DNA of 64,000 nt from an uncultured Candidatus Binatia bacterium (GTDB lineage: Bacteria > Desulfobacterota > Binatia > UBA9968 > JAJDTQ01): the NCBI GenBank assembly GCA_964291295.2, contig OZ219754.1, positions 2,336,001 through 2,400,000 on the forward strand, read 5' to 3'. Of this stretch, positions 4,912 to 16,200 are shown one piece after another. The notes beneath the pieces are model-generated. The model did not search any database and was not told the origin of the DNA. It saw only the letters and a program-made list of their open reading frames with translations. Numbering within the stretch: position 1 is the first letter of the stretch; each line of letters begins with the position of its first letter. The translations under genes were made by a program, and so were the position numbers.

Positions 4912-5637
4912 CAGCGCCTCCCAACGGTCCGGCTTTGTCCGGCGCAGCGACGCCTCCAGCAATGGCGGCGTCAGGTTCATGCACTCGGCCATGTAACGCA
5001 CAATATGACGCTCGAACGCGCTCCCCGCAACCGGCCCGCCCGTCATCTGGTCCAGAAGGTCCGTCGGTATGTCCTCGGCATATACCACCTTGAGCGCCAG
5101 AAGCCCGGCCCGCACTTCGGGCGAGACCGACAACCGCCCTGGCGCAATCTCGCCAAGGTCATGCAGCACATAGGCGAACTCCCTGACGAAAGGCTCCAAC
5201 TCCCCGGGCGCGTCGATCATCCCCGGCACCGAGGGCGCCGCAGTCCAGCGGCCCCGACCGTGGTAGAAAACCAGCGGAATGATCGCCGGCAGCCGGTCCC
5301 CGGCGGCGCCATTCTCGACCTCGCGGCGCCAGATGTTGACCATGTATTTCAGGAGTTGGAGCGGCGTGTCCGCGTCGACGCGGCTCTTGTGTTCGAGCAG
5401 TACATAGAGCCGCGCATCGTGGCCGCTCCTCAGTCTCACCCGGAACAGCGCATCGCACTGGGTCCGCGCGGCGTCCTCGTCCACGAAGTGGCCCTCCACC
5501 GCCTCGGGCGGGGCCTCGGGGTCGAGGAGAGCGGCGACTTCTTGCGGCAGGTATTGCGCCAGCAGCGCGGCGGCGCGGGCCGGCTCGGAGACCAGTGCCC
5601 GGAACAGCGCATCGTGGGGCGTCGTCGGAAGGCTCAC
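4588..5637 (-). CDS. Rpn family recombination-promoting nuclease / putative transposase (YhgA-like) with DUF4351-like C-terminus
   Basis: PHDALFR, CDALFRV, YVLLEHKS, LQLLKYM, IIPLVFYHG, a QGIE repeat tail and LLRQLALRFG. Confidence 0.92.
   Translation of the reverse strand: MSLPTTPHDALFRALVSEPARAAALLAQYLPQEVAALLDPEAPPEAVEGHFVDEDAARTQCDALFRVRLRSGHDARLYVLLEHKSRVDADTPLQLLKYMVNIWRREVENGAAGDRLPAIIPLVFYHGRGRWTAAPSVPGMIDAPGELEPFVREFAYVLHDLGEIAPGRLSVSPEVRAGLLALKVVYAEDIPTDLLDQMTGGPVAGSAFERHIVRYMAECMNLTPPLLEASLRRTKPDRWEALMGTVAQAWIEQGRAEGMEQGIEQGIEQGIEQGIEQGIEQGIEQGIERGRRQALAELLLRQLALRFGDVPDAVGERVRGASASELEAWAEAVLVAANLDEVLAATPGR
4774..4869. repeat. 12-bp coding tandem repeat (TTCGATTCCCTG), 6 perfect + 2 variant copies
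   Basis: Seen directly; encodes (QGIE)7 in the Rpn protein. Confidence 0.95.
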
Positions 5638-5947: not shown

Positions 5948-6175
5948 ACCGCATCCGCGCGGCCTGTCGGATGCCGTTCACGCTACCCGGTTCGCATAGC
6001 TCGTTCAAGCCACGGATCGGTCCCACGGAGACGATGCCTTGACGAGCGGGGCAAGATGAGCGGCAACCGGAATCAGGCAACCGGAACACCGATGCCCCCT
6101 CGGGTCTCGTGGCCGCGTCCGTCCGGGGGACGGGGAGTTGCGAAGGTTGGCCTTACGGAGTAATAGCAGTAGATC

Positions 6176-8347
6176 ATGGCCGGCTCCGAATCCACCTCCA
6201 CACCCGCCACATCTACCCACGCCGCGCCCGCACCCGACTCCCCCCCCGGATGCCGCATCGGCGTCGACATCGGCGGAACATTCACGGATCTGCTCCTGGT
6301 GGCGGATGACGGCACCTCCTTCATCGGCAAGACCCTGACCACGCACGGCGATCCGAGTGCGGCGGTGGAAACCGCCATGAGGGAGGGCCTGGCGGCCGCG
6401 GCGGCGGACCGCGCCAGGACGGGGACGCTGGTGCACGGCACGACGCTGGTCACCAATGCCCTCATCGAACGCAAGGGCGCGGTCACCGCGCTGCTCACCA
6501 CCGCGGGTTTCCGCGACGTGCTGGAGATCGGACGCGAGCACCGCTACGAGCTCTACGATCTCGATCTCGAGTTTCCCCGGCCGCTGGTGCCGCGCTACCT
6601 TCGATTCGACGTGCCCGAGCGCATGGCCGCCGACGGTACCGTGCTCGAGCCGCTGGACGAGGCGTTCGTGCGCGCCCTGGTGGCGGAACTCCGGGACAAG
6701 GGCGTGCGCGCGGTGGCGGTGTGTTATCTCAACAGTTTCCGCAACGCCGCCCATGAGCGGCGCACCCGGGAGCTCATCGCCGAGGTGGCACCGGACATCC
6801 GCGTGTCGGTGAGCGCCGACGTGGTGCCCGAGATCCGCGAGTTCCAGCGCACCAGCACCACCGCCGCCAACGTCTACGTACAGGAACGGGTGGCCGCCTA
6901 TCTCCAGGAGCTCCAGCAGCGGCTGCACGGCCTGCGCTTCACCGGCAGCTTCTTCGTGATGCTCTCCAGCGGCGGCATCGGTACGCCCGAGACGGCCGCA
7001 CGCTACCCGGTGCGCATGCTGGAGTCGGGTCCGGCGGCGGGGGCGCTGGCGGCGGCCGCCCTGGGACGGCGCGCGGGCTATCCGGACCTCCTCTCCTTCG
7101 ACATGGGCGGCACCACCGCCAAGCTCTGCGCGGTGGAGAACGGCCACCCGCTCAAGGCCCGGGAGTTCGAGGTGGACCGGGTCTACCGCTTTCGCAAGGG
7201 CAGCGGCCTGCCCATCAAGATCCCGGTCATCGACATGATCGAGATCGGCGCCGGCGGCGGCAGCATCGCCCGGGTGGACGCCCTGGGGCTTCTGAAGGTG
7301 GGCCCCGACAGTGCCGGGGCGGACCCCGGGCCGGCCTGCTACGGCCGCGGCGGCACCGGCGCCACGGTCACCGACGCCAATCTGATCCTCGGCTACTTCG
7401 ATCCCGACTACTTCCTCGGCGGCGAGATGAAGCTTGACGTGGACGCGGCCCGCCGGGCCCTCGGCGAGATCGCCGGAAAGCTCGGCATGCGCGTGGAGGA
7501 GGTGGCCTGGGGCATCCACCAGATCGTCAACGAGAACATGGCCAACGCCGCACGCGCCCATCTGGGGGAACGCGGCGCGGACCCGCGGGCGCTGCCCATG
7601 TACGCCTTCGGCGGCGCCGGGCCGGTGCACGGTTGCCACGTGGCGGAACTGCTGCGTCTGCCCACGCTCATCGCTCCGGTGGGAGCGGGCGTCGGGTCCA
7701 CCTTCGGGCTGCTGGCGGCACCGCTGGCCTTCGACTTCGTTCGCAGCGCCTACAGTCTTCTGGACGCGCTGGACTGGTCTTTCGTGAACGGGCTGTTCGA
7801 CGACATGCACGCCGAGGGGCGCGCCATCCTGGAGCAGGCGGGCCTGGGACCGGATGCGATCGTCTACGAACGCACCGCGGACATGCGTTACACGGGTCAG
7901 GGCCACGAGGTGTCGGTGCCGATCCCGGACGGCGTGCTGCACGGCGGCCATCTCGGCGCCATCACCGAAGCCTTCGAGCGCACCTACGCACAGATGTACG
8001 GCCGCACGGTTCCCGACGTGGGGGTGGAGGTGATCAACTGGCGCGTGGTGGCGCGGGGGCCGGAGCAGCCGCTGCACTTCGCGTCCGGGAACGGCAGCGC
8101 CGGCGGCGCCCGGGCGGAGAAGGGCGCCCGGCCGGTTTTCTCGCACGCCCGGGGGGCGTTTGTCGACACCACCGTCTACGACCGCTACGCGCTGGCGCCG
8201 GGCATGACCTTCCCCGGGCCCGCGGTGGTGGAAGAGCGCGAGTCCACCTTGGTCATCAGTGCCCGTGGCCGCGCCCGGGTGGACGAACACCGGAACGTGA
8301 TCGTCGAGTTCAACCATGAAAACGCCGACGGATACCACGCCGACTGA
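6176..8347 (+). CDS. Hydantoinase/oxoprolinase family, A (ATP-binding) subunit
   Basis: IGVDIGGTFTD, HGTTLVTNALIERKG, ESGPAAG, FDMGGTT, IGAGGGS, SAGADPGPACYG, FGGAGP, DMRYTGQGHE. Confidence 0.93.
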   Translation: MAGSESTSTPATSTHAAPAPDSPPGCRIGVDIGGTFTDLLLVADDGTSFIGKTLTTHGDPSAAVETAMREGLAAAAADRARTGTLVHGTTLVTNALIERKGAVTALLTTAGFRDVLEIGREHRYELYDLDLEFPRPLVPRYLRFDVPERMAADGTVLEPLDEAFVRALVAELRDKGVRAVAVCYLNSFRNAAHERRTRELIAEVAPDIRVSVSADVVPEIREFQRTSTTAANVYVQERVAAYLQELQQRLHGLRFTGSFFVMLSSGGIGTPETAARYPVRMLESGPAAGALAAAALGRRAGYPDLLSFDMGGTTAKLCAVENGHPLKAREFEVDRVYRFRKGSGLPIKIPVIDMIEIGAGGGSIARVDALGLLKVGPDSAGADPGPACYGRGGTGATVTDANLILGYFDPDYFLGGEMKLDVDAARRALGEIAGKLGMRVEEVAWGIHQIVNENMANAARAHLGERGADPRALPMYAFGGAGPVHGCHVAELLRLPTLIAPVGAGVGSTFGLLAAPLAFDFVRSAYSLLDALDWSFVNGLFDDMHAEGRAILEQAGLGPDAIVYERTADMRYTGQGHEVSVPIPDGVLHGGHLGAITEAFERTYAQMYGRTVPDVGVEVINWRVVARGPEQPLHFASGNGSAGGARAEKGARPVFSHARGAFVDTTVYDRYALAPGMTFPGPAVVEERESTLVISARGRARVDEHRNVIVEFNHENADGYHAD

Positions 8348-8368
8348 TTCGAACCGCGGAGTGCGCCC

Positions 8369-10111
8369 ATGAGCAGGGACGTGCCCATGAGCAGGGACGT
8401 CATCGATCCGGTCACCCTGGAGGTGATCTGGAACCGCCTCCTGTCGGTGGCCAACGAGCAGCAGGACGCGCTCATGCGCACGGCCTTCAGCACCATCGTG
8501 CGGGAGAGCCAGGATCTGGCCTGCGGCCTTTTCGACACCCGCGGCCGCATGGTGGCCCAGTCGGTCAGCGGCACGCCGGGCCACATCAACGCCATGGCCA
8601 CGTCCATGGGGCACTTCCTGCGAGAGTTCCCCGCCGGCAGGCTGGCACCCGGCGACGTGCTCATTACCAACGACCCGTGGCAGACCGCCGGCCACGTCAA
8701 CGACATTACCATCACCACACCCATCTTCCGGAAAGGCCGCCTGACGGCGTTCTTCGCCAACACCTGTCACGCGGCGGACATCGGCGGACGCATCCTCTCC
8801 GCCGAGGCCCGGGAGGTTTACGAGGAAGGGCTGCGGATTCCCATCATGAAGCTGTTCGCCGCGGGCGAGCCCGACCCGATCCTGCTCAAGATGGTCCGCG
8901 CCAACGTCCGGCTTCCCCACGAAGTCGTGAGCGACTTCTACGCCCAGGCCGCCTGCAACGACGCCGGCGGCCGGGCGCTTGTGGAGACCATGGACGAATT
9001 CGGGCTGGCCAGCTTCGATCCGGTGGCGGAGGAGATCATCGGCCGCTCGGAAAAGGCGGTGCGAGCCGCCATCGCCGAACTCGAGGACGGCGCGTGGGAA
9101 GGGGAGACCTGGAGCGACGGCTTCGAGGAGCCGATCCTCATCAAGACCAGGCTGGAGGTGCGCGGCGACGAGATCTTCATCGACTTCGCCGGTTCCTCTT
9201 CCCAGAGCCGCCGGGGCATCAACGTGGTGATGAACTACACCCACGCATACGCCAGCTTCGCCGCCAAGGCGGCCATCTATCCCGACGTGCCCCACAACGA
9301 GGGGAGTTTCCGGCCGGTGCACGTGATCGCCCCCGAGGGCAGCATCCTGAACGCCAACGAGCCGGCGCCGGTGGCGGCGCGTCAGACGGTGGGCCACTTC
9401 GTCCCCACGGCGGTTTTCACGGCCCTGGCCAAGGCGCTTCCGGGCAGGCTCATGGCCCCGGGCGCGGACCCCATCTGGCTCAGCGTGTGGCGCGGCCAGG
9501 ATCCGGCGTTCAATCTCACGGTCTTCCAGGTCGGCGGCACCGGCGCCCGCCCCACCAAGGACGGGCTCAGTGCGGTGGGCTTCCCCAGCGGCGTGGCGGG
9601 CGTGCCCGCGGAGGTCATCGAGAGTCTGTCGCCGCTGGTCATGCGCCGGCGCGAGTTGCGCGTGGATTCCGGCGGCGCCGGCACCTGGCGCGGCGGCCTG
9701 GGACAGTTCACCGAGTTCGCCAACCGCGCCCGCGGCCCATGGAGCGTCAACGGCATCCTCGACCGCACCCGTCATGCCGCCCCCGGCATCATGGGCGGCG
9801 GTGCCGGGCTCCCCGGCGAGTTCATCCTCGACGGCGGCGAACGCCCCAACCCCAAGGCGCAGACCCATCTGGACGGATCCCGGAGCGTGCACCTCCATCA
9901 ACCCGGCGGCGGCGGTTACGGCGAACCCTTCAAGCGCGATCCCGAGCATGTGCGCGCCGACGTGGTCCATGGCTACATCACCCCGGAGAAGGCGGCGCGG
10001 GACTATGGCGTGGTGGTGCGTTTCACCGGCGGTGTCGGCGAGTGGGTGCGGCTGCCGGAGCAGTGGGTGATCGACGAGGCCGCCACCCGGGAGTTGCGGG
10101 GAGTTTCATGA
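8369..10111 (+). CDS. Hydantoinase B/oxoprolinase family subunit
   Basis: DPVTLEVIWNRL, RTAFSTIVRE, NDPW..AGHVND, HAADIGG, EEGLRIP, DSGGAG..RGGLG, GGGGYGEP..RDP. Start is 8369 or 8387 because of an 18-bp duplication. Confidence 0.93.
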   Translation: MSRDVPMSRDVIDPVTLEVIWNRLLSVANEQQDALMRTAFSTIVRESQDLACGLFDTRGRMVAQSVSGTPGHINAMATSMGHFLREFPAGRLAPGDVLITNDPWQTAGHVNDITITTPIFRKGRLTAFFANTCHAADIGGRILSAEAREVYEEGLRIPIMKLFAAGEPDPILLKMVRANVRLPHEVVSDFYAQAACNDAGGRALVETMDEFGLASFDPVAEEIIGRSEKAVRAAIAELEDGAWEGETWSDGFEEPILIKTRLEVRGDEIFIDFAGSSSQSRRGINVVMNYTHAYASFAAKAAIYPDVPHNEGSFRPVHVIAPEGSILNANEPAPVAARQTVGHFVPTAVFTALAKALPGRLMAPGADPIWLSVWRGQDPAFNLTVFQVGGTGARPTKDGLSAVGFPSGVAGVPAEVIESLSPLVMRRRELRVDSGGAGTWRGGLGQFTEFANRARGPWSVNGILDRTRHAAPGIMGGGAGLPGEFILDGGERPNPKAQTHLDGSRSVHLHQPGGGGYGEPFKRDPEHVRADVVHGYITPEKAARDYGVVVRFTGGVGEWVRLPEQWVIDEAATRELRGVS

Positions 10112-10875
10112 CTCTCTCCCAACGCATCGCCCTCGTCACCGGGGCCGCCACCGGCATCGGCCGCGCCACGGTCCTGGGCCTGGCCCGGGCCGGAGCGGCG
10201 GCAGTCGCCGTCAACTATCGGTCGGCCCGCGGCAAGGCGGAGGCGCTGGCGGCGGAAGTGCGGGAACTGGGCGCGGAGGCCCTTTGCGTGCACGGCGACG
10301 TGAGGGATGATGCGCACGTCCGCGGCATGGTCCGGCAGACGGTGGAACGGTTCGGACGTCTGGACGTCCTGGTCAACAATGCCGGCGTCACCCGCTGGGT
10401 GCCCATCACCGACATGGATGCGTTGACGGACGAGGTCTGGGACGTGACCCTGGACGTCAACGTCAAGGGCGCGTACCGCTGTGCCCGGGCGGCGGCGGCG
10501 CATCTGAAGGCCACGGGGGGCATGATCGTCAACGTCTCCTCGATCTCCGGCGTCATCGCCCCTGCCACCATGTCGTCTCTCGCCTACGGCACCGCCAAGG
10601 CCGGGCTCATCTATCTGACCCGGGGACTCGCCGTGGCCCTGGGCCCCGAAGTCCGGGTGAACGCCGTGGCGCCGGCGTTCACCGACACCCCGTGGATGCG
10701 CGGCCACTACGGCGAGGACTATGAGGACGTCATCCGGCGCGCCTCCGCCAACTACCCGTTGAAGCGGGTGGCCAGGCCGGAAGAGGTGGCGGGCGCCATC
10801 ATGGGCCTGATCACGGGCGGGGATTTCGTTACCGGCCAGACCCTGCTGGTGGACGGCGGCCTGAGCCTGGCCTAG
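10108..10875 (+). CDS. Classical SDR family NAD(P)-dependent oxidoreductase
   Basis: ATG overlaps the upstream stop (ATGA); TGAATGIG, NNAG, SS...YGTAK, VRVNAVAP, TGQTLLVDGG. Confidence 0.92.
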   Translation: MTLSQRIALVTGAATGIGRATVLGLARAGAAAVAVNYRSARGKAEALAAEVRELGAEALCVHGDVRDDAHVRGMVRQTVERFGRLDVLVNNAGVTRWVPITDMDALTDEVWDVTLDVNVKGAYRCARAAAAHLKATGGMIVNVSSISGVIAPATMSSLAYGTAKAGLIYLTRGLAVALGPEVRVNAVAPAFTDTPWMRGHYGEDYEDVIRRASANYPLKRVARPEEVAGAIMGLITGGDFVTGQTLLVDGGLSLA

Positions 10876-10956
10876 CAGCCCGCGCCGCGGAGAATTTTCA
10901 CGGAACGGAGATCCACCACAGTGCCAGCGGGTGTGCAACCGGCCAAGAGAGACACG

Positions 10957-11625
10957 ATGAACCGGACGGAACTGATGACCGCCATGCAGGCGCATCGCCT
11001 GGTGGCCGTGATTCGTTCCAGAACCGCCGAAGAGGCGCTGGCCACGGCGCGGGCCGTGGGCGAGGCGGGCGTTCGCTTCGTGGAGGTCACCTTCAGCGTG
11101 CCGGGCGCCGTGGATGTGATGCGCGCGCTGTCCGACGAGGGGCAGGTGCATGTGGGCGCGGGCACGGTGCTGTCCGAGGGGCAGGCGCGCGCCGCCATCG
11201 AAGCGGGTGCGCGGTTCATCGTCTCGCCCAGCCTGGAACTGGAGTTGGTGCCGCTCTGCCGCGAGGCCGGAGTGGCGTCCATCCCCGCGGGCGCGACCCC
11301 CACCGAAGTGGTTCGGGCGATCCGTGCCGGCGCGGACCTGGTGAAGATCTTTCCGGCGGACTGCGTGGGCGGGCCGCGCTTCATTCGGCAGCTGCGGGGA
11401 CCCTTCCCCGAGGCCCGCTTCATGGTCTCGGGCGGCGTCCACGAGGACAACGTGTCGGAGTACGCGGCGCTGGGCGTCACCGGCATCGTGCTGGGCAGCG
11501 CCTTTCTGGCCGAAGTGCTGGCGCGGGAAGGTCACGGCGGCCTGGTGGCCCGGGCCGGGGAGTTCGTGGGACGGGTGAACGCGGCGCTGGCGTCGGCGCG
11601 CCCCTCTCCGGAACCTGCTTCCTGA
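10957..11625 (+). CDS. KDPG/KHG aldolase family protein (Eda-like)
   Basis: VAVIR, VEVTF, GAGTV, FIVSP, TPTE, Schiff-base lysine in VKIFPA, SGGV. Confidence 0.88.
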   Translation: MNRTELMTAMQAHRLVAVIRSRTAEEALATARAVGEAGVRFVEVTFSVPGAVDVMRALSDEGQVHVGAGTVLSEGQARAAIEAGARFIVSPSLELELVPLCREAGVASIPAGATPTEVVRAIRAGADLVKIFPADCVGGPRFIRQLRGPFPEARFMVSGGVHEDNVSEYAALGVTGIVLGSAFLAEVLAREGHGGLVARAGEFVGRVNAALASARPSPEPAS

Positions 11626-11670
11626 GAGGATGACATAGGATGACGCCCGGGCTGTACGGCAGGGAGAACC

Positions 11671-12660
11671 ATGGCAAACATCGAACTGACGCTGGCATGC
11701 GAGGACTACGACCGCACCCGGGCCCTCAAGGACGGGCGGGTGAAGCCCGCGGGCATCGATCTCCGCTACGTGACCTTGCCGGTGGAGGAGATCTTCTGGC
11801 GCATGCTCCGCTTCCAGGAGTTCGATGCCGCCGAAATGTCCATGGGGGCGTACCACGTGGACGCCTCCCGGGGCCATCGGCCGTTCATCGCCATCCCGGT
11901 GTTCCCTTCCCGCATGTTCCGGCACCGCTGCATTTTCGTCAACACCGCTTCGGGGATCCGAACGCCCGAGGATCTCAAGGGCCGGCGCGTGGGCGTACCC
12001 GAATACACCATGACCGCGTCCGTGTGGGTGCGGGGCATGCTGCAGCACGATTTCGGTGTGGCGGCCCGGGATGTCCACTGGGTCCAGGGCGGCGTCGAGC
12101 AGCCCGGACGCAGGGACCGCGTGCCGTTCGACGCCCCCGAAGGGGTCGAGATCGATACCGAGGAGGCCCGGACCCTCGACGACATGCTCGAGAAGGGCGA
12201 CATCGACGCGCTGGTGTCGGCGCGCATGCCTGGCTGTTTCGTGCGGCGGGTTTCCGGCATCGCCCGGCTGTTCGAGGATTGCCGCGCGGCCGAAATGGAC
12301 TACTTCCGCCGCACCGGTCTGTTCCCCATCATGCACTGCGTGGTGGTGCGCCGGGATATCTACGAGGCCCATCCCTGGGTGACCCAGAACCTTTACAAGG
12401 CGTTCTGTGAGGCCAAGGAACTGTGCGTGTCGCAGATCTACGACACCAACGTGCTGCGCACGCACCATCTCTGGTACCTGTTCGAGTACGAGGACACCGT
12501 GGATCTCATGGGCGAGGACTACTGGCCCTACGGTTTCGAGAGCAACCGCAAGACCCTGGAGACCTTCCATTCCTATCTGTTGGAGCAGGAGGTGATCAGG
12601 AATCCCGTGGACCTGGAAAGCCTGTACGCGCCCAACACCCGTGATGCCTTCAAGATCTGA
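11671..12660 (+). CDS. 4,5-dihydroxyphthalate decarboxylase-like / PBP2-fold substrate-binding protein
   Basis: LTLACEDYDRT, EIFWRM, IPVFPSRMFRH, GVPEYTMTASVW.RG, FPIMH, DYWPYG..NR; GGAG RBS. Confidence 0.8.
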   Translation: MANIELTLACEDYDRTRALKDGRVKPAGIDLRYVTLPVEEIFWRMLRFQEFDAAEMSMGAYHVDASRGHRPFIAIPVFPSRMFRHRCIFVNTASGIRTPEDLKGRRVGVPEYTMTASVWVRGMLQHDFGVAARDVHWVQGGVEQPGRRDRVPFDAPEGVEIDTEEARTLDDMLEKGDIDALVSARMPGCFVRRVSGIARLFEDCRAAEMDYFRRTGLFPIMHCVVVRRDIYEAHPWVTQNLYKAFCEAKELCVSQIYDTNVLRTHHLWYLFEYEDTVDLMGEDYWPYGFESNRKTLETFHSYLLEQEVIRNPVDLESLYAPNTRDAFKI

Positions 12661-13034
12661 GCGCGGAGTGTTGCGTCGCTACCGACATCCTGGATCACCT
12701 GTCGCAGGCGCAGGTTGTCCGTGCCGGCAGGCTTCATTCCACATGGGCAGGCAACACCATCTTGGAGAGGCCTCGAGAAACCCTTTGTTCGCCAGGTGAC
12801 AGGTGCGGCGGAGAGTCATGGCAATCACGAGAGTCACTCATGGCCGGTCGGTGTGGTTGGCGCCTTTTGCATCGGGAAGCTTGGCAAGACGAACTGAATC
12901 GCGAGGGACTCGCCAATGCCGTGGCGATGCATGGACCCGGCGGGGCTTGCAATCCGGTTGCGATATCGGTAGACAGTTTCCGTTTTCGGGTAATCATGCG
13001 CGTTCGAGCGAGGGCTGGACGCAGTTCAAAACGC

Positions 13035-13084
13035 GGTTCAGATTCGGTTCAGGCAACCGGCTCAGGTAACCACTCAGGTAACCA
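13035..13084 (+). repeat. Short direct repeats upstream of the adhesin (CTCAGGTAACCA x2, plus degenerate TTCAGGCAACCG and GGTTCAG x2)
   Basis: Seen directly; the last copy ends 1 nt before ATG 13086. Confidence 0.75.
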
Positions 13085-13144
13085 AATGGACGACAAAAGG
13101 CCTGACAAGTTTATGGCTGTTCGGCCAGGATTCTCGAACCCTGT

Positions 13145-13165
13145 CCCCCCCCCCCCCCCCCCCCC
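13145..13165 (+). repeat. C21 homopolymer, candidate slipped-strand phase-variation tract
   Basis: 21 consecutive C between ATG 13086/13113 and ATG 13243; the adhesin frame is open from the tract to 13243. Confidence 0.9.
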
Positions 13166-13242
13166 GATATTTTGGACAGGCGGCGGCCGGACGTCGTGTC
13201 CGCGGAGAATCGCGTCCGCAGAAACCCGTCGCGGGTGAGCCG

Positions 13243-16200
13243 ATGACCGCGCCAGCGCCAGCAGTCCATGGTGGGCGTGAACGTCGCGCCGGGAGCGGCA
13301 AGGCGATGCAGCCAGGCAGGGTGGCGGCCGATCACTTGGCTGCCAGTGCTAGTAGCCCCGGACCGCTCGGGCGGCTGGCGGCGGCAACGTTCCGCCGCCT
13401 GCGGCCGCTTTCTTCCCGCTGCCGCGCGGGCAGCGCCGCCTTCCGCCCGCCGGCGCTGGCCGCCGTTCTCCTGTTCGCGCTGAGCGCGGGCCTTGCGCCC
13501 CAGGCGGCGCATGCCACGTGGGGGGTCTTGACGGCCACCCCGGGCGATGGGCAGGTTACGCTGAACTGGACCTGGACGCACTCACGACCTAACACCAGCT
13601 GGTGGTGGTTCAGGTATGTAAGAGCTGGCCAACCTTATCACGAGTATAACGTCGTTCGTGGGATCGGCTCCATTTACGACTCAAAGTACAACCTGATTGG
13701 GGCTCATCATCGCACCCAGACGATTACCGGACTCACCAATGGGGTCGAGTACGTGTTTGAGGTACACGCCCATATTCCTAATACGGCTTTGGAGGTGAGG
13801 GCGACCCCGTCGCGCTATCCCATTGCCCCGAAGGGCGTCACCGCGACGCCGGGAACCAGCCAGGTCACCTTGTCCTGGGACGCTCATAACGACTCGCGCG
13901 TCACGCGCTGGGAGTACGAGCAGACCAGCGGGGGCACAACCGGGAACTGGAAGAAGATCTCCGCGAGCAATGCCTCAACCACCAGCCACACGGTGACGGG
14001 TCTGACCAACGGCACGCGGTACGGCTTCAGGGTCCGCGCGGCAAGCGATGGTCTCGGCGCCCCGTCGGCCTCCGTGTTCGCAACGCCACGGCCCGCTCCC
14101 TGCGCTTTGAGAATTGCCAGTGTCAGTGGGCCGGGTCCGACGGTCGCGTTCCGTTGGGGGCCCACCAAGGCAAATTGCGGCGACATCAGCCGGACGCAGG
14201 TTCAGAAGAAACTCGCCAGCAGCCCGGACTGGAGCGGGAGTGTCTGGGAAACCCTGTCCACGAATTTCTATCGAAACTCCGGTGTCGCATTTACCGTGGA
14301 CGACACCTTGCGGGTGAGTCTTGCCGAGGGCAACAGCTACCATGTGCGCGTCCGCGCGGTCAACGAAGGCCTCACCGTCACGTCCGAGGAAGGCGTCGCC
14401 GGCCCGCCGTCCTCGGAAACTCTTCTGTGGCTCGGTCCTCCAGGGTCTCCAACCGGGCTGAAAGCCGCGCCCTTTCAGGCTGCGATCCAGCTCACCTGGA
14501 ACCAGCAGGCGTCAGGACAGAAGGTGACCGGATGGGATGTTCGGAGGAAGGAGGGCGCCGGCAGTTACGGCGAATGGGGCCGTATTACGGGTTCCGGCGC
14601 GAACACCGTCCTCCATTCGGCGAGCGGGCTGACGTCCGGGGTCGACTACACGTTTCAGATTCGGGCGGTGAACGCCGCCGGCGACGGTCGGGCTTCCGAA
14701 GAAGTGACCGAAACGCCGACCGGCGTGACGATCTCCCAACCCGCGCTGACGGTAGAAGAAGGTAGCAGCAGCACCTATACGGTGGTGCTTGATGCCGAGC
14801 CGTCGGCCGACGTCACGGTGACCGTGGGCGGCGCTGCGGCCGGCGTGTCGGTGAATCCGCCGTCGCTGGTCTTCTCGCTGCTGAACTGGAACCAGCCGCA
14901 GACGGTCACGGTCTCCGCGGCCGAGGACGACAACGCGGTTTCCGAACCGGTGACACTGACCCACAGCGCCAGCGGCGGAGGCCTGGACTCGGTGCCCATC
15001 CGCGCGGTCGTGGTGACCGTGACGGAGAACGAAACGGCCGGATTCGCCCTGTCGGAGTCCGATCTGGAGCTGGAGGAGGGCGAGTCCGGCTCCTGGACGG
15101 TGGCGCTGACCTCCGAGCCGACCGCCGATGTGACGGTCACCATCAGCGGCGCCCCGAGCGGCGTGACGGTGACTCCGCCCACGCTGACGTTCACGGCCGC
15201 GGACTGGCAGACGCCGCAGATGGTGACGGTCGCGACGGTCGACGATGAAGACGCGGCGCCGTTGCCCGCGGTGACGCTGACCCACAGCGCGTCCGGCGGC
15301 GACTACGGCTCGCTCACCGCCTCGGTTGCGTTGACCGTGACCGAGAACGAGACGGCTGGGCTGACGTTCTCGGATGGCGACAAGGAGATCAGCCAGCTGG
15401 AGGTCATCGAGGACGGGTCGGGCAACTACATGGTGGCGCTGACGTCCGAGCCGACCGCCGATGTGACGGTGACCATCACGCCGGGGCCGGGCGACGTGAC
15501 GGTGCAGTCGGGGTCGCTGACCTTCACTGCCCTCAACTGGAGCGCCGCGCAGCAGGTGGTTGTCCTCGCGGCCGAGGACGACGACGCGAAGACGGATCCT
15601 GCGGTGACACTGACCCACAGTGCGTCCGGCGGCGATTACGGCTCGGTGACCGGCGCGCTCACGGTGGCCGTGCTGGAACATGATCCGCCCGGGAAGCCCG
15701 TGAACTTCAGCGCGACGGCGGGCGACAGCCAGGTGACGCTGTCCTGGAACGATCCGCAGAATCCCGACATCAGCGGCTGGGAGTTCCAGCAGGCCGTGCG
15801 CGGCGCCAGCTTCGGCGCGTGGACGCCCATCCCCGATTCCGGCGCCGCGACCACCAGCCACACGGTCACGGGTCTGACCAACGGCGTCTTCTACAGTTTC
15901 AAGCTCCGCGCCGTCGCCCAGCTCCGGGAGTCCCTCAGGGGGGAGAAGGAAGACGCCGAGGGCGTCAGCTCCGACGAGATCAGCGCGCTGCCGCGCCGGG
16001 TGGGCAAGAACGTCACCCTGTTCGTCTCCGACGCACAAATTGAAGAAGGACAGGCCGGCACGACACCTGTCCTGATCCGTCTCGTTCTCGGTGAGCCGGC
16101 GCCCGCTGGCGGGCTCGGCCTCGCCTTCGAGGTCGATGGAACCTCGACGGCAACGGCGAGCGCGCCGGTCGCGACCAGTTGCTCGGCGCCGAACCCGATG

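Follow-up and report, generated by a model that had tools for sequence, protein, structure and literature searches.

A poly-C tract as a probable contingency locus in front of a giant autotransporter-like gene of an uncultured Candidatus Binatia bacterium

Homopolymer phase variation is textbook knowledge for a few cultured pathogens and commensals. For Neisseria meningitidis, one report describes poly-C tracts in the coding sequences of NalP and MspA, of 6-15 and 6-14 nucleotides (nt) respectively, with NalP ON at 7, 10 or 13 C and with tract lengths that vary between strains (PMC3723659). For Bordetella, a second report counts 69 G/C tracts over three species, in coding regions as well as promoters, with 74% of them polymorphic; the most variable lie in the autotransporter genes tcfA and bapC, and the fimX promoter has one (PMC1891110). 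The present analysis concerns a poly-C tract in front of a gene of 10,711 codons in a 64,000-nt stretch of DNA, hereafter the window, from an uncultured Candidatus Binatia bacterium (assembly GCA_964291295.2, contig OZ219754.1, positions 2,336,001 to 2,400,000 of the forward strand). The tract is neither a chance run nor an assembly artefact, and is very probably a contingency locus, whether it works by leader fusion, by graded translation or, in part, through transcription. The preliminary description of the window had proposed such a locus before a giant barrel-terminated gene, and this proposal gains support from tracts across the genome, from nine of 13 barrel-terminated genes, from length differences within tract pairs and from other genomes. 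The anatomy of the locus, the non-random tract repertoire, the gene classes that carry it and the length differences between near-identical copies are all observed directly.

The tract occupies window positions 13145-13165 (+), on the sense strand of the giant gene, and encodes prolines in all frames. It is C21 as assembled, a homopolymer length that in any assembly carries an uncertainty of about one base, and the single other homopolymer of at least 8 nt in the window is C8 at 6240-6247. ATG 13086 and a second ATG at 13113 lie in a common frame that reads into the tract (leader frame, 13086-13144, +). In the C21 state the frame of ATG 13086 continues through valine and seven prolines to TGA 13236-13238, 4 nt short of ATG 13243, which is the first start codon of the giant open reading frame (ORF; 13243-45378, +). 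When the frames were re-computed in silico, C17, C20 and C23 joined the leader frame to the giant ORF, and C16, C19, C22 and C25 ended it at TGA 13244-13246, which overlaps the start codon as ATGA (13243-13246, +), so that an upstream-ORF stop lies close to the main start in either unfused state. As a matter of geometry, tract length modulo 3 fixes the frame of ATG 13086 and ATG 13113 relative to the giant ORF. The giant-ORF frame itself is open for 83 more codons 5' of ATG 13243, through the tract, and none of these is ATG, GTG or TTG. Re-reading of the sequence confirmed the C21 length and the start and stop coordinates given in the preliminary description; the C21 peptide written there has one proline too many, and its caveat that the major allele may be C20 stands.

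Several elements surround the tract. A sigma-70-like candidate promoter (TAGACA, 16 nt, AATCAT; 12970-12997, +) matches the consensus at 9 of 12 positions, is the sole such match in 12500-13600, where shuffled sequences lead to an expectation of 0.1, and lies about 90 nt 5' of ATG 13086. A 12-nt unit in perfect tandem duplication (13061-13084, +) duplicates a Shine-Dalgarno (SD)-like AGGT(AA), and its second copy ends 1 nt before ATG 13086, with the AGGT 6 nt from that codon. The linker between the tract and the giant ORF (13166-13242, +) is open in the giant-ORF frame and contains an SD-like GGGTGA together with TGA 13236-13238. Neither the leader sequence nor the position of its ATG is conserved between orthologues. 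Strong GC content at third codon positions (GC3; 0.9) in the main frame of the window begins only around 13363. A transient rise of GC in the C22 frame over 13123-13300 was considered as a coding signal and dropped, since it runs on past the stop codon.

The window genome (3.70 Mb, 66% GC, three contigs) possesses 37 G/C runs of at least 10 nt, of which 35 measure 12-27 nt, and the longest A/T run is at most 9 nt. Compared with the counts expected from an independent and identically distributed model on genome composition, runs of at least 12 nt are in excess (35 observed, 8.5 expected), as are runs of at least 21 nt (5 observed, 0.0004 expected), whereas runs of 7 nt are strongly depleted (117 observed, 1430 expected) and runs of 11 nt are missing altogether (0 observed, 17 expected). 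The run-length distribution is therefore bimodal, as runs of 7-11 nt are depleted while a separate population of long runs is kept. Because the window tract belongs to a set of about 35 such hypermutable runs, it is most likely a phase-variation switch of the ordinary type, though a very long one. Both MutS and MutL are present, which indicates local hypermutability rather than a mutator state. The tracts fall into sequence families; examples on contig 1 are those at 5012, 351886, 605882, 1431620 and 2287382.

A profile of the C-terminal domain of the giant protein retrieved 13 full-length barrel-terminated genes from the genome. Nine of these, all rich in fn3 repeats, possess a sense-strand poly-C tract of 14-23 nt at their 5' end, and the remaining four form a more distant subgroup with no 5' G/C run above 7 nt. 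The preliminary description had pointed to the 5' ends of other barrel-terminated genes as the place to look for poly-C, and there it is present, in 9/13 genes of this genome and in four of the five other genomes that carry the same giant gene. One of the nine genes with a tract is a second giant, which extends over the contig ends (contig 1, 1-5030 and 3617737-3648015, minus strand; frames of 1693 and 10,112 codons) and has G19 at 5012-5030, its 5' end. At the contig junction these frames are out of register by one base, a sign of a slip in assembly or circularisation, or else of a real frameshift. Fragments of the same C-terminal barrel also occur in short or split frames on contig 1 (2769972-2770954 on the minus strand, 1317984-1318427 and 2331609-2331833) and are probable remnants of further autotransporter genes.

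The remaining tracts lie in gene classes typical of contingency loci, which besides the barrel-terminated surface proteins comprise TbpB-like lipoproteins, proteins with RTX repeats and methylases. Five paralogous TbpB_B_D lipoprotein genes possess C16-C22 directly after the lipobox (contig 1, 351886, 874052, 1555359, 2270508 and 2799053); four of the five are in frame and encode 608-642 amino acids, and the fifth (C20) is cut at 55 amino acids and has a near-identical twin with C16. Tracts of C13-C27 are situated within, or at the beginning of, DNA-methyltransferase-like genes (contig 1, 43450, 485035, 605882, 829088, 1005727 and 2287382), which match Eco57I/N6_Mtase and N6_N4_Mtase and have DPPY and GxGxF-type motifs, and are candidate phase-variable methylases. 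Two further families, with the tract on the G strand, are promoter spacers, in the classical geometry of phase variation by spacer length. The first (family D; contig 1, 1431620, 1847782, 2164767 and 2553056) consists of TTGACA, gt, G15-17 and TAAAGT, with a 17-nt spacer at G15, and precedes genes with a TbpB-type barrel; the second (family C; contig 1, 502203, 667172, 699787, 1209581, 1268213 and 2138419) consists of TTGAC, G14-18 and TATACT or TATGGT, and precedes genes with RTX calcium-binding repeats, whose SD and ATG lie 65-95 nt downstream. Judged by its sequence matches, the gene-class profile is that of a classical 'phasome'. Tracts of C12 or longer are also numerous in the five other genomes with the giant gene and in several complete genomes that belong to the window's genus. 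Relatives with fragmented assemblies have many of their poly-G/C matches at the ends of contigs, where sequencing artefacts may be the cause.

Differences in tract length were found within the genome and, at the window locus, may exist between strains. Of five tract pairs with at least 90% flank identity in the genome, four differ in length (C16/C17, C16/C20, C15/C17 and C15/C14) and the fifth does not (C19/C19). At the window locus itself, public sequencing runs were compared as contigs. In run X1, which is probably the source sample, the contig graph breaks at the tract into pieces that end at 13174 and start at 13145. In run X2, a contig over 12400-13384 shows three substitutions and is a net 4 bases shorter somewhere in that span, and the strain would be C17, an in-frame length, if the 4-base gap falls in the tract. 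Joints from 13166/13167 to 13232, 13355, 13421 and 13981-13983 were rejected as deletions, because their sides of 18-23 letters are the tract itself, and they were treated as pieces of other tract loci or strains.

Five other public genomes (G041-G045) possess the same 5' end of the giant gene, at loci designated L013-L017. Over more than 3.5 kb the gene bodies are 96-99% identical to the window (blastn) and the upstream DNA is unrelated. Homology begins at window 13355 in L013 and L014, at 13401 in L015, at 13145 in L016, which is the first C of the tract, and at 13451 in L017. The tracts measure C14 in L013, C16 in L015, C18 in L016 and C14 in L017, so that four of the five unrelated 5' regions own a poly-C tract, located 80-372 nt before the hydrophobic core of the signal peptide. 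L016 shares its downstream flank with the window, with C18 versus C21. The mature N-terminus and the signal-peptide core are conserved, and everything further 5' is hypervariable in both sequence and length. The upstream flank of L017 is A/T-rich and the gene has about 68% GC. The taxon labels of the five records are very diverse, from gammaproteobacterial to Thermoanaerobaculia and Thermodesulfobacteriota.

The five genomes are not close relatives of the window genome, as rpoB is only 63-82% identical, and the idea that the tracts are a trait of close relatives was abandoned for that reason. The genes flanking the giant gene show at most 70% identity to these genomes over long stretches, or no match, whereas blocks of 3.5-11 kb within the giant gene (window 13145-36499) are 92-99% identical in all five, and its 3' end is only 74-78% identical. 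Such a mosaic pattern is suggestive of a recent lateral exchange of giant-gene modules, provided that the assemblies are not chimeric.

Together, the nine loci of the window genome and four in other genomes make up 13 related 5' regions. From the tract onward, no stop interrupts the main ORF frame in any of the 13, and in all 13 an upstream ATG or GTG reads into the tract. In several paralogues the leader ATG is preceded by a strong SD, stronger than that of the window: GGGAGG 8 nt upstream in three loci and GGGAGAG or GGTGAGG in three others, with spacings of 2-8 nt. The near-consensus promoter of L017 (TTGACA, 18 nt, TAAACT) ends about 6 nt ahead of the leader ATG and 34 nt ahead of the tract. 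At the assembled lengths, seven of the 13 are in frame (eight if an ATG without SD at locus 2911885 is counted) and five, including the window, are out of frame, a mixture that is the expectation for a phase-variable family.

On balance, the tract is best read as a slipped-strand contingency locus that sets the state of the giant gene at translation, by an ON/OFF fusion with a possible leak. Transcription would start upstream of the tract, and ribosomes would initiate at ATG 13086, aided by its upstream AGGT, and cross the tract as polyproline, after which the length modulo 3 would decide the outcome. At C17, C20 or C23 the leader would be fused to the giant ORF and the product would carry a long N-terminal extension ahead of the signal-peptide core (ON). 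At C21 translation would end at TGA 13236 and at C22 at TGA 13244, and in these states the 32-kb ORF would be translated only via re-initiation at ATG 13243 (OFF or low). Replication slippage would produce the length changes, which would be heritable and reversible. The start codon used, the ON lengths, and switching and its rate are what we infer here.

Several observations weigh against this fusion. The in-frame count of seven or eight in 13 is not significantly above one third, and the test based on the open main frame is weak, as ten loci have an internal start and each has two of three frames open, which gives about 0.02 by hand for loci that are non-independent. GC3 is 0.70 in the leader and 0.67 in the linker compared with 0.89 in the ORF, so that neither has a coding-type signal. 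Linker nucleotides common to the window and L016 sit in different reading frames, and the linker is therefore unconstrained as protein. In the paralogues an internal GTG, preceded at 8 nt by an SD-like G(A/G)GG, leads into a canonical signal peptide of 34 residues, and their GC3 of 0.83-0.93 begins exactly at this GTG, a pattern that fits a separate leader ORF as well as it fits a fusion. In the window, the SD and ATG 13243 could allow expression that is independent of the tract, and L014 has the giant gene and no tract. RNA polymerase slippage on so long a run could blur the state set in the DNA, and the branch seen in run X1 could stem from homopolymer sequencing error.

The alternative that survives best, unlikely if still credible, is a graded three-state switch, the second option of the preliminary description. 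In it the leader would be an upstream ORF of its own and the giant protein would truly begin at ATG 13243, so that, depending on tract length, ribosomes from the leader pass through the start, halt 4 nt short of it or stop on the ATGA, and there is no true OFF. The geometry around the start is in keeping with this: a TGA lies 7 nt before the start within a motif common to the window, eight paralogues (TAG in two), L015 and L016, and an RTGA overlap is present in the window, L015, L016, L017 and the paralogues 896843 and 2911885, with the third frame of the remaining paralogues stopping 31 nt after the start. The internal start with its SD-like element, followed in the paralogues by the canonical signal peptide and coding-type GC3, also fits, as does the conservation of ATG 13243 and its context in L015 and L016 despite many indels nearby. 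The stop-start motif is, however, inherited by descent, and its recurrence is therefore not independent evidence. Its variation falls at third positions of the main frame (GGG/GGA/GGC, GAG/GAA/GAT, CCG/CCA), which hints at main-frame translation upstream of the start, and one of the off-frames ends early in L016 (26 nt after the tract) and in L017 (1 nt after it), without converging on the start. Moreover, a switch that never turns off a 32-kb gene would offer little of the usual benefit of a contingency locus.

A broader proposal arises from the sequences on either side of the tracts. Between loci 586116 and 1818433 identity is 0.58 upstream of the tract, 1.00 downstream and 0.99 in the gene body; between 1818433 and 3071512 it is 0.80 upstream, 0.54 downstream and 0.62 in the gene body; and between the window and L016 it is 0.59 upstream, 0.88 downstream and 0.99 in the gene body. 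In these comparisons the upstream and downstream flanks reassort exactly at the tract, which marks a recombination boundary and raises the idea of tracts as recombination joints. It is distinctly unlikely that the tracts go beyond ON/OFF and serve both as a three-level rheostat with Rho and as a portable recombination joint. Under that proposal, all three frames of the leader ORF could bring ribosomes to the main start as a three-level rheostat, and in the unfused state the poly-C RNA, being exposed, could attract Rho and so spare the cell 32 kb of useless transcript. The tract could also provide a joint of about 20 nt of perfect identity common to all such loci, at which each genome could attach its own promoter-leader cassette to giant-adhesin modules exchanged between distant bacteria.

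That the tract acts on transcription or on the transcript, and not on the reading frame, is highly unlikely. One variant would make it a spacer of variable length from an upstream activator or promoter element to a -10-like hexamer after the tract (GATATT or TATTTT), as in the Bordetella fim promoters; the other would have the poly-C RNA of the leader load Rho or pause RNA polymerase. In the window, L015, L016 and L017, A/T-rich -10-like hexamers do occur no more than 2 nt after the tract, and the genome clearly uses promoter-spacer tracts before TbpB-like and RTX-repeat genes, but tracts situated clearly within ORFs have A/T-rich 3' flanks as well, and three paralogues with the tract 25-26 nt before the start leave little room for a promoter. 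A promoter scan found no -35/-10 pair with 16-18 nt spacing around 13145-13165 or around the 12 related tracts, and no -35 at a workable distance for any plausible length; by consensus matches, promoter-like sequences occur upstream of the tract only, at four of the 13 related loci, with none spanning or following it. Poly-C is a ligand of Rho, and in the autotransporter and lipoprotein families each of the 14 tracts has its cytosines on the sense strand, which would suit Rho loading. The leader RNA, however, has no special fold (minimum free energy the same as that of shuffled sequences, z = -1.0, tract unpaired) and no Rfam match at E <= 1, and neither variant explains the conserved strong SD and ATG that read into the tract. 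The last alternative, a neutral hypermutable run or recombination joint with no regulatory role and with expression from ATG 13243 or a later start, would suit the flanks that reassort exactly at tracts, the L016 homology that starts at the first C and the tract-free L014, but is barely probable, since 7-11 nt runs are depleted genome-wide while runs of 13-27 nt persist at the 5' ends of particular gene classes, a tract is present in each of four unrelated 5' regions of the same gene, and the tracts of other families lie where length must matter (inside ORFs, or in promoter spacers of exactly 17 nt).

The product of the giant gene may fairly be named a giant autotransporter-like surface protein. 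Its passenger contains at least 22 fn3 and at least 23 Calx-beta stretches, plus PKD, Big_9 and He_PIG, and from these fn3, Calx-beta, PKD and Ig repeats we infer the putative label 'adhesin'. By inspection, the signal-peptide core (13408-13515, +) consists of a basic stretch, a hydrophobic stretch and A-H-A, followed by the conserved mature N-terminus; it is identical or nearly so in the window and L013-L016, and L017 shares its hydrophobic part. Every start codon lies unusually far from the hydrophobic core. In the window orthologue group there is no in-frame start within about 100 nt of the core, and the protein would therefore have a long N-terminal extension whichever start is used.

The C-terminal 330 residues (44386-45375, +) form a probable outer-membrane beta-barrel of the autotransporter type. 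They are about 30% identical to the C-termini of seven paralogues, and the final residue is tryptophan, an aromatic residue as expected of such barrels, in the giant protein and in all seven. An AlphaFold2 model of the domain (predicted local distance difference test, pLDDT, 60) is all-beta with long hairpins throughout, and the Foldseek matches listed for this model are all outer-membrane barrels, including EspP, BrkA, NalP and AIDA-I, with template modelling (TM) scores of 0.25-0.49. The match to PF03797 lies below threshold (E = 1.1e-4; 22.5 bits versus a 26-bit cut-off), and sequence searches of the PDB with the domain returned nothing relevant. The term 'barrel-terminated' in the preliminary description is thus moderately supported: the predicted fold and its structural matches speak for it, and the family score falls short. 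Searches with the N-terminal part gave distant matches at best: a protein search with residues 1-200 returned four distant matches of at most 53% identity, a scan of metagenome contigs returned two distant loci of 30% identity, and among 40 GTDB relatives matches were to fn3 repeats only, with residues 1-95 unmatched.

The neighbours of the giant gene are metabolic, and secretion genes are absent alongside it. Two minus-strand frames, 10003-12570 (855 amino acids) and 6005-9970 (1321 amino acids), have no Pfam match, and one of them overlaps a plus-strand ORF (11671-12660) with weak matches to substrate-binding-protein families. Both are likely spurious frames of a high-GC genome.

A literature search, with supplements outside its reach, found among the papers listed no description of this lineage or of such tracts in uncultured or symbiotic lineages. 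Here a genome known from metagenomes holds a full repertoire, of autotransporters, TbpB-like lipoproteins, RTX-repeat proteins and DNA methylases, with tracts both inside ORFs and in promoter spacers and about twice the usual length. If the reading is true, stochastic switching of surface and methylome would be part of uncultured bacterial life, and a single hypermutable run would gate a gene product of about 1 MDa, among the costliest that a cell makes. Gene callers and assemblers will mis-annotate such genes, with wrong starts and false frameshifts, unless the state of the tract is considered. The size of the repertoire, the lengths of the tracts, the cost of the controlled gene and the lateral mosaicism raise the interest of the locus.

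Among other known systems, lic1 of Haemophilus influenzae has a repeat just after alternative start codons, with the repeat number giving strong, weak or no translation. It is the known precedent for a three-level reading, with a 5' repeat and starts in more than one frame, and differs in that its repeat is a tetranucleotide and lacks the stop-start overlap geometry. Neisseria Opa and PilC have repeats inside the region that encodes the signal peptide; the likeness is a switch in an N-terminal presequence that leaves the mature protein unchanged and whose off-frames end early, whereas the present tracts lie 80-372 nt before the hydrophobic core and, in the paralogues, before a complete canonical signal peptide. 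Bordetella pertussis resembles the window genome in its high GC content and in its dozens of G/C tracts of more than chance length, in coding regions and promoters and in autotransporters. The window genome is unlike it in its longer tracts, in its TbpB-like lipoprotein, RTX-repeat and DNA-methylase families, and in belonging to an organism known only from metagenome-derived genomes. The closest likeness in arrangement is to NalP and MspA of N. meningitidis, where a sense-strand poly-C in an autotransporter gene sets ON or OFF by its length modulo 3, as is proposed here. In contrast to these, the present tract measures 21 nt (tracts genome-wide, 12-27 nt), its gene has about ten times the length, and switching is a prediction from the sequence. 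The position also differs, since the tract is placed in an unconstrained leader, ahead of a conserved internal start and signal-peptide core. As a probable contingency locus it belongs to a known kind, that of NalP and MspA and of TcfA and BapC, and what sets it apart is its occurrence in an uncultured bacterium, the length of the tract and the size of the gene.

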